Shown here in pieces: positions 23,411-32,810 of a stretch of 64,000 nucleotides of DNA. The stretch lies in IMG/VR virus record IMGVR_UViG_3300033148_006964, positions 64,001 through 128,000 of that record; one strand, given 5' to 3'. Below the pieces are notes generated by a model. That model saw nothing but the letters and a program-made list of their open reading frames with translations. It ran no database searches and was not told where the DNA came from. Every line of letters begins with the position of its first letter. Within the stretch, counting starts at the first letter, position 1. A program made the translations under genes and the position numbers. The DNA comes from a virus.

Positions 23411-25477
23411 ATGGCTAATGAAGGTCTTTCAGGCTTAACAACCCCTACAGTTGAAAGCGCGTCTAGTTCTGGGCAGTCTTTATTTGTAAGAGGGTCTATT
23501 AAATATGATTCTCCATTTTTAGATATGACCAGTACATTTATTCCCAAGACTATAAAAGGTATATTGAGATTTGTAGCAGCTTATGTCCTTGGTGATGGAC
23601 TTGTAGCTCAATGTATATCAAAATTATCTGAATATCCTATTACAGACTTATTATATAATGATAGTAACCCGTCTCATATAGAAGACGATAAAACTATTGA
23701 TTATTGGAAAAAGTTTTTAGAAAAACAACTTAATATAGTAAGATCATTAAAACAAGCTGGTATGGATTATTATGCTTATGGCAATTCTGTTATATCTATA
23801 AGTTATCCGTTTAAAAGAAGATTAAGATGCCCAAAATGCAAACAAGAACAAGCTATTGAATCTGAGAAAACTTCGTTTAAAGCTTTTAAATTTTATTCAG
23901 AATGTATATCTAAAAAATGTAAATATAAAGGTGAGATGGAAGCTTATGATTTAAACACCAAAGAACTTGATAAATTTAATATTGTACATTGGGATTTAAT
24001 GTGTTTAGATATTAAATATAATAGTATTACTGGAGATCATTTTTATTTTTATTCTCCTCCTATAGATATAGTAACCGCTGTTCGTAGAGGAGATATGGAT
24101 ATTATTAAAACTACAAGGCTTGAAGTTATAAATGCGATAAAAAAACGTAAAAAGCTTAAGATAATGGAAGACAATGTATTTCATCTTAAAAGACCTGCAC
24201 CGCAATATATCATCCCTGCAGAGCGTGGATGGGGAATCCCTGTAATAATGCCGGTTATGAAAGACATTTTTCATAATAAAATTCTTAAAAAAGGCAACGA
24301 AATGATAGCGTTTGATCATATTGTTCCACTAAGAATTCTTTTTCCTAAAGGTACTGGGGATATAAGTCCACATGCTACTGCCAATCTTGGTACATGGAAA
24401 ACTAAGATAGAAGATGAAATAAGAAAATGGAAAGCAGACTCTAACTACATTTCAATTGTACCCCTTCCAGTAGGTATTGAAAATATTAGTGGAGACGCTA
24501 AGATGTTAATGGTAACTCCTGAAATTAAAGTAACTGAAGATAATATTATAATGGGTATAGGTATTATTCCTGAGATCATACGTGGCGGCGCATCATGGTC
24601 TGGTAGTAACGTTTCGTTACGAGTTGTAGAAAATACCTTTTTAAATCATCGTAATGATATGCAGGAAATGATTGATTTTATAATTGAAAACATAGCCAGG
24701 TATTTAGAAAAACCCGCTATAGAAATCACAATGTCTGATTTTAAAATGGCCGATGATCTTCAGAAAAAAGAACTTATGTTAAAAGCATCTGCCGGACCTC
24801 CTTCAGAAGCATTAGTATCTAAACCTACAGTTACTAAAGAACTTGGTTTTGATCCTGATGAAGAATATAAACTTTCTGAAGAAGATCTTCAAAGACGAAT
24901 AGAGATGCGGATTAAAGAAGCAGAAGGATCTGCAGAAGCCCAAGGTTCTGCCACTCTTCTTAATGCTATGTATTCAGCAGACGCTCAAATGGAACAGCAA
25001 AATAGAATGGATATGCATGAGAGGGAGAATCAGTCTAAACGTGATGAATTTACTCAAATGCAGCATGAAGACAATGCTCAACAGGTTACTAAAGAAGTAA
25101 GCGCTTTAAGTGCTCAGCCTGAAAAAATATCTCTTCAAAATCTAATTTTAATATTAACCCGGAGATTTGCAAGACTTTTAAAAATTAATGTGGATGATTT
25201 TAAAATAAGAATGCTCGCCTTAAAAAATAGTATGCCAGCACTTTATAAGGAGATCTTTGATAATTTAAAAGAAATGAACCTAATAGAAGCTGATACATCC
25301 CCTGACCTTCAAGCTGTTCAAAGGTTTACTCCTGGTCAAATACCTTCTCATACTCAAGGAGAAGGTTCTGCCGAACAGCCTCCTACCCCTGCTGAAGCCA
25401 ATGCGGGAGTAGGTACAATAAATGCACCTCTACCAGAGGTAAGTCCTCCCAGATCAGCCGTAAGCTCTTCGGTTTAG
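23411..25477 (+). CDS. Putative portal protein with a Zn-ribbon-like insertion
   Basis: 688 aa; SPFLD...KLSEYPIT and DYYAYGN...S motifs like those recalled from large-phage portal-like proteins; CPKC...CxxxxC insertion; low-complexity C-terminal tail. Confidence 0.55.
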   Translation: MANEGLSGLTTPTVESASSSGQSLFVRGSIKYDSPFLDMTSTFIPKTIKGILRFVAAYVLGDGLVAQCISKLSEYPITDLLYNDSNPSHIEDDKTIDYWKKFLEKQLNIVRSLKQAGMDYYAYGNSVISISYPFKRRLRCPKCKQEQAIESEKTSFKAFKFYSECISKKCKYKGEMEAYDLNTKELDKFNIVHWDLMCLDIKYNSITGDHFYFYSPPIDIVTAVRRGDMDIIKTTRLEVINAIKKRKKLKIMEDNVFHLKRPAPQYIIPAERGWGIPVIMPVMKDIFHNKILKKGNEMIAFDHIVPLRILFPKGTGDISPHATANLGTWKTKIEDEIRKWKADSNYISIVPLPVGIENISGDAKMLMVTPEIKVTEDNIIMGIGIIPEIIRGGASWSGSNVSLRVVENTFLNHRNDMQEMIDFIIENIARYLEKPAIEITMSDFKMADDLQKKELMLKASAGPPSEALVSKPTVTKELGFDPDEEYKLSEEDLQRRIEMRIKEAEGSAEAQGSATLLNAMYSADAQMEQQNRMDMHERENQSKRDEFTQMQHEDNAQQVTKEVSALSAQPEKISLQNLILILTRRFARLLKINVDDFKIRMLALKNSMPALYKEIFDNLKEMNLIEADTSPDLQAVQRFTPGQIPSHTQGEGSAEQPPTPAEANAGVGTINAPLPEVSPPRSAVSSSV

Positions 25478-25625: not shown

Positions 25626-25964
25626 TCAGTTAATGGATTTGCTGCTGTTATTGTGCAACTGTTCTTCAACCGAAACGGTTACGAACGCATCTATAAATTT
25701 TTCAACTTCTTCGCTGGTAAAGGCTCTAGCTTTACCTTCTTTATCAATTATCTGCAAAGTAAGATGCGGCACAATGTTTACAAAAGTCCTTTCTCCAGAC
25801 TTATATAGTATTTCGAACGATCCTTCTTCTTCAATATCTAAGTCTCGTTCTTTTAAGTTTTGATATGAGTATTTAATTTCTGTTACTTCGTTCATAGAAA
25901 TAATATTAATATTAGTTGTTAAAGATTCATTATCCTTTGGCCTTTCTAAAATTTTTATAAACAC
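25626..25964 (-). CDS. Hypothetical protein
   Basis: 112-aa ORF with a GGAGG RBS. Confidence 0.75.
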   Translation of the reverse strand: MFIKILERPKDNESLTTNINIISMNEVTEIKYSYQNLKERDLDIEEEGSFEILYKSGERTFVNIVPHLTLQIIDKEGKARAFTSEEVEKFIDAFVTVSVEEQLHNNSSKSIN

Positions 25965-25987: not shown

Positions 25988-26014
25988 AAAAGAGGGAATT
26001 ATTAATTCCCTCTT
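25988..26014 (-). terminator. Intrinsic terminator closing the Ubl operon
   Basis: Perfect stem AAGAGGGAATTA/TAATTCCCTCTT followed by Ts on the - strand. Confidence 0.75.
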
Positions 26015-26032: not shown

Positions 26033-26509
26033 TTAAAGATTGCCCTTTGTTTTTTCTGAAAAAATCAACCTCATATTTCCATCATCATCTGGTCGTGTTA
26101 ATTCGGTTGAACCAGGAATACTCCCGCCACCTGTCGCAAGGCGATATTCATAAATTGGATCACCATTTTCTTTAAAAAATTCACTTCTTTGTTCGGAAGG
26201 AAGTTGATCAAGAAGTTGATTTATTGTGATGCCGTCTTCAACTGGAAGAGTAACATTAGCACCATTTCCAAATCTTATAATTGTAACATCCCATGGAACA
26301 TTACCTTTAGTCGGTTCTGCGATAAAAACACGCATTCCATCAGTAAGAATTTTATCAAGAGAAGCTGGAGATTGTCCTACAGTTACACATCCTTCAACAA
26401 ACTTTTCTTCAGCACGTTCTAAAAGATGTTTTATAGTAGCATCTTCATTAGTTTCAAAAGAAAACTCTCTATTAGCAGTACCCATTTTAATTAAAGTTAC
26501 ATCTAGCAT
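26033..26509 (-). CDS. Tandem ubiquitin-like (beta-grasp) protein with two domains, each ending TKGN
   Basis: Internal duplication (LDVTLIKMG..TIKHLL..TKGN / WDVTIIRFG..TINQLL..TKGNL); adjacent to E1 and JAB genes. Confidence 0.75.
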   Translation of the reverse strand: MLDVTLIKMGTANREFSFETNEDATIKHLLERAEEKFVEGCVTVGQSPASLDKILTDGMRVFIAEPTKGNVPWDVTIIRFGNGANVTLPVEDGITINQLLDQLPSEQRSEFFKENGDPIYEYRLATGGGSIPGSTELTRPDDDGNMRLIFSEKTKGNL

Positions 26510-26540: not shown

Positions 26541-27311
26541 TTAAGATGTACACGTCTCCCGCATTGCCATTACGGGCTCTTCATTAAATTTTTTTAAATA
26601 AAAAGATTCTGGATACAATGAAAATTGAACTTCATTCCATAAATGAAGTCCTATTTCATCATCGTTTCGTAGATTATCATTACCATAATGACAATTAAAA
26701 TGTTGTATAATTCTACCTGCTGCAATGCTTGCAATAAACATTACTGTAGTAATTATAGATTCACTTGCTCCACATAACGATGTTTCTGCTTCCTCATCTG
26801 TATATAAAGTTTGCATCCATTGTTCTACTTCGTCTCGTGAATGAGGATTAAATGCGTAAATCCGACCATTTCGCAACCCCATTCTGGTTTCAATTACAAG
26901 ATCCGTATTAAACGAACGCTTTATACATTTTTCAAATATTTCTTTTCTACTGGACATAGTATCTGTTAATAGCATCACATAATTTGATTTTACTGATTCT
27001 TGATCAGTAACCATCTCATTATGAGCTTCAATTTTAAATCCACATTTTCTTAAAATAATTTCTTTAAGAGCTTCGACTTTTGGCATGCCGACATGTGATT
27101 GCTCATATATTTGATTTGCTAAATTATGTTCAGCTACTATATCTCCATCGAATACTTTTAAAACACCCTGTTTTAATGGAGTGTTCCCCCATCCAAACTG
27201 AGCCAGCATTGAAGCGATATAACTTCCAGTAGCACCAACCCCAACCAGTGAAATTGTTTTTTTCCCAATATCAGTTGGATTAAGCAATTTTTGTTGTCTA
27301 GTGTAATCCAA
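26541..27311 (-). CDS. ThiF/E1-like ubiquitin-like activating enzyme
   Basis: GVGATG, DGDIVAEHNLANQ and PKVEAL motifs; candidate catalytic Cys in SLCG; likely TTG start at 27311, 1 nt after the JAB stop, with a GGAG RBS. Confidence 0.9.
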   Translation of the reverse strand: MDYTRQQKLLNPTDIGKKTISLVGVGATGSYIASMLAQFGWGNTPLKQGVLKVFDGDIVAEHNLANQIYEQSHVGMPKVEALKEIILRKCGFKIEAHNEMVTDQESVKSNYVMLLTDTMSSRKEIFEKCIKRSFNTDLVIETRMGLRNGRIYAFNPHSRDEVEQWMQTLYTDEEAETSLCGASESIITTVMFIASIAAGRIIQHFNCHYGNDNLRNDDEIGLHLWNEVQFSLYPESFYLKKFNEEPVMAMRETCTS

Positions 27312-27312
27312 T

Positions 27313-28161
27313 TTAAAATCTCCTGTTATTGATATCGTGAACCATTTCATCTAATTCATAATCTTCTAACATTATCTTATTAAGCTTTTCATTTCTTATT
27401 TTAAACAAGTCTTCTTGATAATTTAAAAGATTATTTTTATATTTCCCATTTTTTTTACTATATGACTTATAATTTGTAAAATCTTCTTCGGGGAGATTTA
27501 TTTTTTTAAGTTCTTTAACTTTTTTCTTAATATTATTAGTTTTAATAACTTTTTCAATCTTTTGTATTTTTTTAGCTGTATCAATATTATCGGTAGATAG
27601 TATTAACGCAACATCTTTAAGCTTTGTTTCTTCAGAGTTTTGTAATAGTCCGTCTTCTTCAACCGTCCATTTTACGTTATCAAACTTAATTTGTTGATTA
27701 TAATCAAAAAACGATACAGACATTATTTCTTTTTTATTACATATACCTCTTAAAAAATAAGTTTTTCTTCGATTCATTTTTTCAATTGCTTCGTCTTCAT
27801 CTTGTTGAGACGGACTGACCCCCATAGTATGGTGAGAATGCCCCCAGAATCTAACTTTTCCAATATCATCTTCTCTATTACGATTAATTAACCAAACCCC
27901 CATATCAGATTCACCTTCAGTGGATATTTCACATGTACCACCATTAGCTTCTGAATGTTTAGGATAAAAAATCTCTCTTATAAAATATGTATCATTACCA
28001 CGTTCATCTACGATTCCAAAAAAACCAACTTCATCTGAATGAACGTCAACTAATGCTTCTATCCATTTGATAGCAGAGCTTGCAAAAATTATCTTTGGCG
28101 CTTCTTTTTTTTCTGGCTTTAAAATTGTATAGGTTGTAGCTTCATTTTTTTCGAATTTCAA
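27313..28161 (-). CDS. JAB/MPN+ metallo-isopeptidase
   Basis: EVG...E and WGHSHH.MGVSPS.QD (JAMM H-x-H-x7-S-x2-D pattern). Confidence 0.9.
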   Translation of the reverse strand: MKFEKNEATTYTILKPEKKEAPKIIFASSAIKWIEALVDVHSDEVGFFGIVDERGNDTYFIREIFYPKHSEANGGTCEISTEGESDMGVWLINRNREDDIGKVRFWGHSHHTMGVSPSQQDEDEAIEKMNRRKTYFLRGICNKKEIMSVSFFDYNQQIKFDNVKWTVEEDGLLQNSEETKLKDVALILSTDNIDTAKKIQKIEKVIKTNNIKKKVKELKKINLPEEDFTNYKSYSKKNGKYKNNLLNYQEDLFKIRNEKLNKIMLEDYELDEMVHDINNRRF

Positions 28162-29281: not shown

Positions 29282-31180
29282 TTAAGAATGAAGCGGAATC
29301 GCATCCGCTAAAATATTATCAAATTTTTTTTCTGCCTCAGATATTTTATTGAGGATCTTATTAATATCTTTATTTCTATCAGCATTGTTCGCTACTTCTT
29401 CACTTACTTCAGGCCACCTATCTATATAAGCTCCTGCAGCATCATCAGTGTTAGCTGTTTGCAAAAAAAGCATCAATTGAAAAATTATTTCATACAGATC
29501 TCTTCGTATGTAAGAATCGGCCATACTTTTTACTAAATTACCAAGACACATATGTCCATCTGAAAAAATATGTGGTGCTTGCATTTCTGTTTCAAGAGCC
29601 TCTATTTGATGTTTAGTGTTATAAATACGAATAGTGTTATTTTCATCATACCTTTCATCTAACATTCCAATTTTTATATGAAAAGTACCAATATCATGCC
29701 AACAGTTAGATCTATTATCTTGAGCATATAAATTATGAGTATATACATTAATTTTTCCATCTTTTATATTAATAGAACTTACTTCGTCAAGAGCTATGGT
29801 TTCGTTATAGTTATATAAAGCTTTTTCTTTTTCTTTTTTTTTCATATCAACTTCATCGAATGCGTCAATTTGATTCATATACTTCATCATCATCTTACCG
29901 CTTTCCATAGCTTTATTAAAATGCATTTCATAATCTTGTTTAGATTTTTCTTTTAATGTAGTAATCTCTTTCAAGATGCTTATGGCATTTTTAACTGAAA
30001 AATTTACATATTCCTCCTTATTCATTTGAGCTATATTATTATAATAGCCTAAATCAATCTTAAAAAGATCTTCATATTTAATATCATTATTAATTCTTCT
30101 TACAAATTCTTTAAATATTAACGATGAAGACTCATTTTCTCCAAAATAAACCATAGGATATAAAAATGTAATAAAGCATCTATCCTTAAGTGCCCATATA
30201 ACATTTGTAATAAAATCTTTAAAAATAAAATCAAATTTAGCATACGGTGAATTGGATTCATTTTTTAATATTTCTTCTATATCATTATATTTTTCAGTCT
30301 CTCTAAGCTCTTGAATTTCAGAATTTATTTCAGAAGAATGTAATACATGTAAATTTTTAATTGTATGACCAAAACATAATGCTTTACACCCAGGAGGCAC
30401 TTCTTTAAATTTAGAATTATCATACGGAACAAGAGATATTATTAACGTATGCTTTTCTATTTCTTTTAAATTAAATTCATTACTATCAAACAATGTTTTA
30501 AAATTATAAACTCCATTTGTAAGGAAAATAATATTTTTATTAGTTTTTTTTACTAAATTTACTACTTCCTTTTCTTGCGGGACATCACCAGTGCCGTATA
30601 TTATTACTTTACGATTTATTTTTTTTATTTCATCGTTACGTATAATAACCTGTGGACTTGCAAAATTTTCTGTAAACTTTACAAAAAATAAATCTATTTC
30701 TTTTTTTAATGGGTCTTCAAAAGTTGGTTGTTCTTCTTCATTTAATACCGCAGGAGTTGTATTAATTATATCACCTATTATATCCTCTTCTGAATCTTTA
30801 TGTTCATCATCAACAAAAAGATTTAATACAAAATCTTTAAAATCTGAAAGATCAAATCTGTTCGTTCCAATACCAAGATCTTTAATATTACGATATTGAT
30901 CGGTATTCTTTGTAGCTTCAGATGTTAATGCGTCTAATACATCGTCATCGGCATAATATTTATGTAACAATATCATCATTCCATTAATATTTGAAGCATA
31001 GTGCGTTGGACTAAGCACAGATAGATCATCTGACGCTACAAAATAATTAAGGATAATATCACTTATTTCATTAAAATCTTTTTCATTAATAGCAGCGGCT
31101 TCTCCACCATTATTCAATGCATATGGAATAAAATCAATATCAAGGAATTCTGCTAACCATTTTTCTATAAATCCATACAT
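29282..31180 (-). CDS. Second prokaryotic E2-like protein with a long N-terminal region and coiled coil
   Basis: C-terminal APHIFSDGHMCLGN motif. Confidence 0.65.
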   Translation of the reverse strand: MYGFIEKWLAEFLDIDFIPYALNNGGEAAAINEKDFNEISDIILNYFVASDDLSVLSPTHYASNINGMMILLHKYYADDDVLDALTSEATKNTDQYRNIKDLGIGTNRFDLSDFKDFVLNLFVDDEHKDSEEDIIGDIINTTPAVLNEEEQPTFEDPLKKEIDLFFVKFTENFASPQVIIRNDEIKKINRKVIIYGTGDVPQEKEVVNLVKKTNKNIIFLTNGVYNFKTLFDSNEFNLKEIEKHTLIISLVPYDNSKFKEVPPGCKALCFGHTIKNLHVLHSSEINSEIQELRETEKYNDIEEILKNESNSPYAKFDFIFKDFITNVIWALKDRCFITFLYPMVYFGENESSSLIFKEFVRRINNDIKYEDLFKIDLGYYNNIAQMNKEEYVNFSVKNAISILKEITTLKEKSKQDYEMHFNKAMESGKMMMKYMNQIDAFDEVDMKKKEKEKALYNYNETIALDEVSSINIKDGKINVYTHNLYAQDNRSNCWHDIGTFHIKIGMLDERYDENNTIRIYNTKHQIEALETEMQAPHIFSDGHMCLGNLVKSMADSYIRRDLYEIIFQLMLFLQTANTDDAAGAYIDRWPEVSEEVANNADRNKDINKILNKISEAEKKFDNILADAIPLHS

Positions 31181-31272: not shown

Positions 31273-31611
31273 TTAAACTGCATGATGAGCGCTTTTAATA
31301 GTTTCTTTTTCCATATTAAGTTTTTGTTTTATCGCTATCCACTCAGCCCATGAAAAACAAACCATAGCTTTTGTACCACATGAATTAAGTTTTTTAATTC
31401 TTAAAATTTGTAATCTAGAGGCTTTACCATTAAATCTTTTAGTTTCTATAAAAACTCCGCCAGTTAAAGCTGTTGAAAAGAATATATCTGGAAAGCCGTT
31501 ATCACTTGCTCTCATAATCTTAGTACATGTGCAATATTTTCCTAATGATCTTAAATCATTTAATATTTTTGTTTGGAGGTCTGATTCTTTTTCCATATTG
31601 TTGTAATCCAT
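31273..31611 (-). CDS. VRR-NUC domain nuclease
   Basis: ESDLQ..I...PDI...FIETK...S.LQ motifs. Confidence 0.85.
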   Translation of the reverse strand: MDYNNMEKESDLQTKILNDLRSLGKYCTCTKIMRASDNGFPDIFFSTALTGGVFIETKRFNGKASRLQILRIKKLNSCGTKAMVCFSWAEWIAIKQKLNMEKETIKSAHHAV

Positions 31612-31690: not shown

Positions 31691-32014
31691 TCATTTTTTT
31701 CCTCTAAATTTTTGCGTAATACGACGTACTGTTGTGACTGATATTTTTAATCTTCTAGCTATTTCAAAACCTGTTAATCCTTGTTTGTTTAATTCTATAA
31801 TTTTTTTATTTCTTTGTTTTTTATTATTCGCAAGCGGTATAATACCTAATTCTTTTCTAACTCTATATACAGCTTGTCTGGTTACTCCAAGAATATCACC
31901 AATAGCTTTATCTGTACGATAAAGTGATTGCATTCTTTTTATATACATCGGTGTAACGATTCCAACTGTACCTAATTTCATGACAGCATCTCCTTCAATA
32001 AAAACTACCCACAT
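31691..32014 (-). CDS. Double helix-turn-helix DNA-binding protein
   Basis: DKAIGDILGVTRQAVYRVR and GFEIARRLKISVTTVRR; true start probably 31981. Confidence 0.75.
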   Translation of the reverse strand: MWVVFIEGDAVMKLGTVGIVTPMYIKRMQSLYRTDKAIGDILGVTRQAVYRVRKELGIIPLANNKKQRNKKIIELNKQGLTGFEIARRLKISVTTVRRITQKFRGKK

Positions 32015-32413: not shown

Positions 32414-32668
32414 TTAATTCTTTTTTCTTGCCCAACTTATTATAAGTTTGCGAGACCTAATGTTTAAATCGTTATTATTTTCAATTGCATTTATAGCATC
32501 CTGATCTTCAGCCATTGTAACAAAACCAAACCCTTTAGATTTTTTGGTTTCCTTGTCCTTAACAATAAAAGCCTCTTCTACAGATCCAACATTAGTTTCA
32601 AAAACTTCTTTTAATTCATTCGCAGTAGTATCATAAGGAATGTTTCCTATGTATAACTTTTTTGCCAT
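32414..32668 (-). CDS. RRM RNA-binding protein
   Basis: RNP2 LYIGNI and RNP1 KGFGFVTM; start at 32668 (MAKKLY) after an AAGGA RBS. Confidence 0.92.
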   Translation of the reverse strand: MAKKLYIGNIPYDTTANELKEVFETNVGSVEEAFIVKDKETKKSKGFGFVTMAEDQDAINAIENNNDLNIRSRKLIISWARKKN

Positions 32669-32810
32669 GTTTTTACATCCTTTAAATGAAGAGAAAGAAA
32701 AAGAGAGAGAAATTAAAACCTCTCCCTCTTCTTCTAACAGCAAATGGCCAATTAAGACCAATTAGTACTTTTAAATAAAAAAAAATATGTTATTTATTTC
32801 ATTCAATATA

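Follow-up and report, generated by a model that had tools for sequence, protein, structure and literature searches.

The gene at positions 26033–26509 (minus strand) of this phage DNA probably encodes a poly-ubiquitin-like precursor: two ubiquitin-like (Ubl) units, head to tail, each closed by its own Lys-Gly-Asn (K-G-N) tail, within a ubiquitin-like conjugation cassette that the phage itself carries. We consider this the best explanation of the fold and tails of the protein, the conservation and co-variation of those tails, the conserved order of the cassette and the intact catalytic motifs of the neighbouring JAB peptidase and E1, each of which is documented below. No description of the K-G-N poly-Ubl family was found in the literature searched. 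The window, the whole 64-kb (64,000-nucleotide) stretch analysed here, is part of a virus record of 180,926 bp with 31.7% G+C.

Results

Two ubiquitin-fold units, each closed by K-G-N

Translation of the minus strand gives a 158-aa protein in which T-K-G-N occurs at residues 67–70 (...FIAEPTKGN(70)VPWD...) and again at residues 154–157, next to the C-terminus (...FSEKTKGNL*), confirming what a sequence-only reading of this DNA had claimed, that both Ubl domains end in T-K-G-N. The gene is made up as follows.

26033–26509, minus strand: poly-Ubl gene, 158 aa, comprising unit A, unit B, the cap residue Leu158 and the stop codon (open reading frame and translation)
26300–26509, minus strand: unit A (residues 1–70), with T-K-G-N at its end (SAMP2 profile match; AlphaFold2 model)
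26300–26308, minus strand: internal K68-G69-N70 tail, candidate internal processing site (conserved in homologues; coil in the AlphaFold2 model)
26039–26299, minus strand: unit B (residues 71–157), a longer beta-grasp with an insert and T-K-G-N at its end (AlphaFold2 model; profile homology to unit A)
26039–26047, minus strand: terminal K155-G156-N157 tail, followed by Leu158 (26036–26038) and the stop codon (conserved in homologues)

When the protein was shuffled 200,000 times, 0.2% of the shuffles had the C-terminal 4-mer again at any position, and 0.015% had it no more than 9 positions from the domain boundary.

AlphaFold2, run with an alignment of 47 homologues, returned a model (mean pLDDT 91, pTM 0.58) of two beta-beta-alpha-beta-beta units, residues 2–63 and 73–152, connected by a 9-residue coil at 64–72 (pLDDT about 76 over residues 61–70). 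Unit A has strands at 2–8, 14–18, 42–44 and 60–63 and a helix at 26–32; unit B has strands at 73–79, 86–90, 120–124 and 146–152 and helices at 96–101 and 105–108. High local confidence together with a modest pTM fits a predicted arrangement in which the units take no fixed orientation to one another. The top Foldseek matches of the model in the PDB were linear di-ubiquitin, ISG15, FAT10 and a polyubiquitin fragment (E 2e-6 to 1e-4), and the two Ubl domains read from the sequence are accordingly recovered as tandem ubiquitin-fold units with one tail each.

Outside the motif the two domains had been described as divergent. Pairwise this stood, no similarity between units A and B being found by BLASTP, but it did not extend to their family profiles, which are homologous and align over their full length with K-G-N set over K-G-N (hhalign probability 97.3%, E 2.6e-11); since this alignment runs end to end, the units derive from an old tandem duplication. 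The unit A family profile matches chains of archaeal SAMP2 in the PDB (E 3.4e-4 to 2.5e-3), and a homologue with three units, P0064, scores above the Pfam cut-offs for Ub-RnfH (35.5 vs 23.7 bits) and ThiS (28.6 vs 22.5 bits); the window protein alone has no Pfam match. By sequence profile, the family would thus be placed in the ThiS/MoaD/SAMP superfamily of beta-grasp Ubls. The C-terminal Gly-Gly of that superfamily is absent, the tail in 57 homologues being K-G-N plus 0–25 residues.

The two tails are conserved and vary together

Exhaustive searching of 1.84 billion cluster representatives with phmmer returned 71 matches, 57 of them poly-Ubl family proteins of 93–227 aa. An internal motif unconserved in homologues would have spoken against the sequence-only reading, but the motif is clearly conserved: internal sites have K in 55/55, G in 54/55 and N in 54/55 cases, and terminal sites K in 57/57, G in 55/57 and N in 56/57. 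Across the 47 aligned two-unit homologues, which are 24–59% identical to the window protein, the only invariant or near-invariant columns are K68 G69 N70, G81, G93 and K155 G156 N157. Departures from the motif include two that are paired, P0033 having K-A-N and P0040 K-G-S at internal and terminal sites alike, each gene lying within an intact five-gene cassette; two other members have R-G-N, and one V-G-N, at the internal site. Joint change at both sites has a rough chance of ~6e-4 under independent variation, and alteration of the motif at both sites together is as expected if a single enzyme reads both tails. At the level of sequence, these comparisons support the view that selection acts on the internal tail as strongly as on the terminal one and that the two co-vary.

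No matches to the poly-Ubl were obtained by tblastn in 50,697 cultured or deposited phage records, and a search of viral contigs for related loci with close poly-Ubl alignment yielded no confirmed locus. Neither a word-based search for shorter forms nor the exhaustive phmmer search found a stand-alone single-unit gene of the K-G-N family, the one-unit proteins from the latter (P0004, P0028 and P0058) all being truncated or uncertain; split single-unit forms would have been the simplest support for a precursor had any turned up. A genome-wide check for further open reading frames ending in K-G-N gave nothing convincing.

Lipoprotein-like proteins of 800–4400 aa (P0005, P0037, P0042 and others) also match the Ubl, over its residues of about 60–145, the matching stretch being repeated up to 34 times (summed E 2.7e-33). 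K-G-N is absent from them, one has a SprB repeat match, and they look like lipoprotein or surface repeat proteins; they were rejected as family members and treated as summed weak repeat matches. Such matches may indeed be weak beta-rich-repeat similarities added together, or may reflect a true distant beta-grasp repeat.

Where the predicted cut falls

To our knowledge, every characterised E1-activated Ubl has Gly as its C-terminus, and JAMM enzymes cut after the terminal Gly of the Ubl. Known Ubl precursors have their conserved residues on the non-prime side, leaving the cap free to vary. In the K-G-N family the position after Asn is highly variable, at internal and terminal sites alike: the terminal Asn is followed by no residue in 12 homologues, by one in 27, by 2–5 in 15 and by 18–25 in three. 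The exact C-terminus is K-G-N in 12/57 homologues and K-G or G-G in 0/57. Between a scissile bond at Gly|Asn, with Gly as the mature end, and one at Asn|x, with Asn as the mature end, we lean slightly towards Gly.

Were the JAB instead to cut the same precursor after Asn70 and Asn157, the E1 would have to activate a C-terminal Asn, possibly via a succinimide as in MccB. The tail counts suit such a cut, with no member ending in K-G, 12/57 ending in K-G-N and a variable residue beyond Asn, which is the usual prime-side picture; Asn is, moreover, as invariant as Lys and Gly. Two HMM alignments with SAMP2 (...KGG) divide on the point, one setting the terminal Gly of SAMP2 on Asn70 and the other on Gly69. 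The substrate of MccB, the microcin C peptide, ends in Asn, and an invariant residue on the prime side, as Asn would be if the cut fell after Gly, is unusual for Ubl-processing peptidases. MccB, a relative of E1, acts on a peptide C-terminus (PMC11118369). Against activation of Asn, protein C of PRTRC, the cassette type closest to this one, ends in ...KG or has variable residues beyond that Gly, and the K-G-S variant, found in an intact cassette, speaks against a strictly Asn-dependent chemistry; the Gly end of characterised E1-activated Ubls, a matter of general knowledge, weighs on the same side. Overall we regard a cut after Asn as doubtful. A fuller scheme along these lines, a phage analogue of polyubiquitin in which the JAMM peptidase cuts out two Ubls ending in K-G-N, the E1 activates the C-terminal Asn and one E2-like protein per Ubl serves distinct virion or host targets, appears distinctly improbable. 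For the preferred precursor reading itself, the invariant prime-side Asn counts against it, as does the absence of single-unit genes.

Unit number varies and repeated units are recoded

Most members of the family have the arrangement A-B. Five have three units, with K-G-N closing each; P0055 and P0064 are A-B-B, P0006 is A-A-B, and the variation in copy number falls at K-G-N boundaries. The two A units of P0006 are 72% identical and two units of P0074 are 94% identical. In P0055 (locus L014), units 2 and 3 are identical at 73/73 residues, and their DNA differs at 31/219 bases, all of these differences being synonymous; the repeated units of P0064 (locus L004) agree at 72/74 residues (97%), and their DNA differs at 24/222 bases, 22/24 of them synonymously. 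Gene conversion homogenises DNA too; protein identity despite synonymous divergence of the DNA therefore indicates selection for identical products rather than gene conversion. Eukaryotic polyubiquitin genes have the same pattern of protein-identical, synonymously diverged units. Units encoding the same protein are absent from the window gene and come from relatives only (L014 and L004).

The three units of P0071 (loci L012 and L013) are 56–64% identical to one another. Its locus has no ThiF gene in the available 2.8 kb, and a 398-aa gene without a family comes next; the context may be different, or the contig may simply be short.

These observations bear on whether the protein is cut between its units at all. 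It could act whole, as a di-Ubl modifier of the ISG15, FAT10 or BilA type in which trimming and activation are confined to the C-terminal tail and the protein is conjugated as a whole, the internal K-G-N being kept for docking on E1, E2 or JAB or for the shape of the linker. ISG15 and FAT10 match the predicted fold as well as linear di-ubiquitin does, A and B remain distinct unit types across the family, type I Bil Ubls consist of two beta-grasp domains, and Bub and Bil Ubls have one to three; the sections of PMC11601603 consulted make no mention of inter-domain cleavage in Bub or Bil Ubls. A linker role would, however, leave several things unexplained: an internal motif as invariant as the activated terminal one, the paired changes to K-A-N/K-A-N and K-G-S/K-G-S, and extra units that are protein-identical despite 22–31 synonymous changes. 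The N-terminal domains of ISG15 and FAT10, as far as we know, have not kept the Gly-Gly tail. Identical units are hard to reconcile with different structural contexts within a single uncut protein, and we judge the uncut form, with its retained internal motif, unlikely.

The cassette around the gene

The poly-Ubl gene is the last of five minus-strand genes lying close together, listed here with the likely terminator.

29282–31180, minus strand: long E2-like protein, 632 aa, with a C-terminal domain as in the 367-aa protein and an unrelated N-terminal part of ~470 aa
28158–29261, minus strand: short E2-like protein, 367 aa, acidic and rich in Pro in its N-terminal part and with P-H-x4-G-x2-C-x-G in its C-terminal domain
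27313–28161, minus strand: JAB/JAMM peptidase, 282 aa, with a catalytic domain at about residues 1–170 and then a Lys-rich tail (JAMM motif)
26541–27350, minus strand: ThiF-type E1, 269 aa, a single adenylation domain (PF00899, 72.9 bits)
25990–26014, minus strand: 11-bp hairpin then UUUUACCUU, a likely terminator, 20 nt past the Ubl stop codon

An intact JAMM peptidase adjoins the gene, together with the E1. The JAMM motif, read directly, is H108-S-H110...S118...D121 (H-S-H-x7-S-x2-D) with an upstream E-V-G-F, and is unchanged in four homologues; the score against Pfam Prok-JAB is 13.5 bits, under the cut-off of 25. Its predicted active site is thus of the JAB/JAMM type. The E1 exceeds the PF00899 cut-off (72.9 vs 28.1 bits), its ThiF domain covering residues 27–225, and G-x-G-x-x-G, D130, R135 and Cys193 (in SLCGAS) are invariant among six phage homologues and one PRTRC ThiF; the Pfam match and the nucleotide-binding and catalytic Asp motifs together identify it as a ThiF/E1 adenylyltransferase. 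Homologues begin at residues aligned to position 14, and the E1 start may for this reason be a later Met.

The 367-aa and 632-aa proteins have matching C-terminal domains (BLASTP 3e-8), in which a His, a Gly, a Cys and a Gly are invariant in five sequences. AlphaFold2 modelled the domain at pLDDT 69 with a disordered active-site loop. With this mediocre model, Foldseek found no match below E 0.98, and a structural search against representatives (VIA) gave a best Z of 5.0 and a list consisting mostly of RWD, UEV and UBC folds, including CdnG-E2, the CBASS E2 (Z 4.5), BubB (3.4) and Cap2 (3.4). The Atlas lead from the domain to Prok-E2_D was weak, and a word-based search returned only the query itself. 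Both proteins are likely E2s, as far as a model of this quality can indicate.

The order E2-like, E2-like, JAB, E1, Ubl recurs in L001–L004, L011, L014 and further metagenome contigs, whose Ubls are 24–59% identical; contigs carrying three-unit Ubl genes break off ahead of the first E2-like gene or within it, or are short. The long E2-like gene keeps its position in L001 and two further contigs. Adjoining the cassette on the opposite strand is a portal protein gene (23411–25477), whose product shows ~28% identity to the portal annotated in Salmonella phage Arash and to proteins of ~187-kb Vibrio phages. Related contigs that are long enough likewise have a portal-sized gene on the other strand and VRR-NUC, HTH and RRM genes upstream, as in the window.

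Those upstream genes in the window, all on the minus strand, encode a VRR-NUC nuclease (31273–31611; PF08774, E 5.6e-6), a small HTH-like protein (31691–32014) and a protein with an RNP-type K-G-F-G-F-V motif (32414–32761). A distant metagenome contig has the run RRM_1, HTH, VRR_NUC, E2-like, E2-like, JAB, ThiF, Ubl, and for this reason the conserved block may exceed five genes. At the other end, the terminator hairpin has an RNA folding energy of -13.5 kcal/mol (z -3.4 vs shuffles), and a simple terminator scan did not list it at 25990–26014. A 112-aa open reading frame (25626–25964, minus strand) lies directly downstream, its place being taken in related contigs by unrelated-looking small open reading frames of 57–136 aa. 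Within the cassette, the JAB gene starts within the last 4 bases of the 367-aa E2-like gene (28158–28161), and the JAB and E1 genes overlap by 38 bases (27313–27350), the E1 start lying within the JAB 3′ end; both overlaps suggest translational coupling.

The protein might instead be no modifier at all but a ThiS/MoaD-like pair of sulfur carriers, or a virion-assembly scaffold of the kind proposed for tail assembly protein I of lambda together with the JAB in its protein K; a Ubl that acts with a JAB in phage tail assembly was described by Iyer et al. 2006 (PMC1779556). Such a role would suit both the closeness of the unit profile to ThiS and SAMP families and the adjoining portal and virion genes, but the cassettes always include the two E2-like proteins with their invariant Cys, and no gene for sulfur transfer or a cofactor was seen nearby; we consider it very unlikely.

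Relation to known systems

Like polyubiquitin (UBB, UBC and yeast UBI4), the phage gene has ubiquitin-fold units head to tail without a spacer domain, a full activation tail on each unit, a short cap after the last and a variable copy number, and its relatives share the protein-identical units whose DNA has diverged only synonymously. On sequence and model, the architecture, head-to-tail units each with an activation tail of its own, is of the polyubiquitin type. It differs in that the tail is K-G-N instead of G-G, processing would fall to a JAMM metallopeptidase whose own gene lies alongside, the carrier is a phage, and similarity to ubiquitin is at the level of fold only. The comparison with eukaryotic head-to-tail polyubiquitin drawn in the sequence-only reading therefore survives in part: each unit has its own tail, but units A and B of the window are different proteins.

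The PRTRC system of plasmids and ICEs (Prok_Ub PF14454/TIGR03738, Prok-E2_D, DUF2016+Prok-JAB and PRTRC ThiF) shares all four activities with the phage cassette, and its E1 is likewise 269 aa long; among plasmid proteins, those that match the phage E1 best carry the annotation PRTRC ThiF (24–28% identity). Its Ubl ends in ...[T/A/D]-K-G with optional extra residues, including ...KGNHA, and is a single unit, unlike the two-unit phage Ubl. The statement that PRTRC protein C ends in TKG holds for the PRTRC_C/Prok_Ub profiles of NCBIfam and Pfam, which end in ...T-K-G, but some members have residues after the Gly, real ones ending in KG*, KGNHA*, KGCHA* or TKG plus 57 aa. The last is PRTRC_C from an Azonexus hydrophilus plasmid (L007:3920–4294), 124 aa long, in which residue 67 is the last of a Prok_Ub domain ending in ...GTKG and 57 residues follow; it would have to be processed by protein A, the PRTRC JAB. 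Ralstonia and Cupriavidus copies have three residues past the Gly (NHA, CHA). Among PRTRC models in NCBIfam and Pfam, only PRTRC_ThiF was matched, its 39.1 bits lying far below the cut-off of 144.75; the phage Ubl, JAB and E2-like proteins had no matches to the PRTRC_A, B and C models, and no ParB, PRTRC_E or PRTRC_F was seen in the window. Alignment by hhalign of units A and B with four PRTRC_C proteins, and of the E2-like alignment with PRTRC_B, was not significant. With cut-offs unmatched and the hhalign results insignificant, PRTRC membership was rejected and the cassette is not filed under that name.

Bil (BilABCD) and Bub operons, like the phage cassette, combine Ubl, E2, JAB and E1. Bub supplies a precedent for processing, its JAB domain cutting a Ubl–E2 fusion (BubAB) directly after a conserved Gly (PMC11601596). 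Bil and Bub are host antiphage defence operons, whereas the K-G-N cassette is phage-borne; the phage family has a K-G-N tail on every unit, co-varying tails and protein-identical extra units, while the passages on Bil and Bub consulted contain no description of inter-domain tails and cleavage. The phage E1 also differs from that of Bil in being short (269 aa, one ThiF domain). PADLOC gave no matches for the Ubl, JAB or E2-like proteins, a null result that is weak evidence with PADLOC-DB version 2023, and the E1 matched only the generic E1 part of CBASS E1-E2 models. As no computed score supports it, membership of Bil or Bub was rejected.

By sequence profile the closest solved structure is SAMP2 (E 3.4e-4), an archaeal protein modifier of the ThiS family that depends on a ThiF-type E1 for its activation and on a JAMM peptidase for its removal; we know of no E2 for it. 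Its end, ...R-V-K-V-L-R-L-I-K-G-G, aligns with phage ...R-V-F-I-x-x-x-x-K-G-N. Unlike the two-unit phage Ubl, SAMP2 is a single unit, ends in Gly-Gly and is cellular rather than viral.

Discussion

In the poly-Ubl precursor that we favour, two homologous but distinct beta-grasp units each carry a complete K-G-N activation tail. The JAMM peptidase encoded next door would recognise both tails and cut between the units as well as at the C-terminal cap, releasing two different Ubls; an archaeal Rpn11 processes a Ub precursor (PMC6043591). The released Ubls would then be adenylated by the ThiF-type E1, probably linked to its Cys193 as a thioester, and transferred to the conserved Cys in each E2-like protein; the long, unrelated N-terminal parts of these two proteins would choose the targets. 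Because the cassette sits beside portal and virion genes, virion or host-defence proteins are candidate targets.

Polyubiquitin genes are considered a eukaryotic speciality, and bacterial ubiquitin-like cascades (CBASS Cap2/Cap3, Bil and Bub) have so far been studied as host anti-phage defences. The large phages of the K-G-N family carry an entire Ubl conjugation kit of their own, and their tag gene bears the marks of a poly-precursor: a tail on each unit, tails that co-vary, a variable number of units, and identical units that have been recoded. If the predicted cleavage is true, viruses of bacteria would either have invented the polyubiquitin strategy independently or possess an ancient relative of it, and K-G-N would be a new tail motif through which a JAMM peptidase and an E1 recognise a Ubl. 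It would also raise the question of what the phage tags, whether its own virion parts near the portal or the defence proteins of its host.
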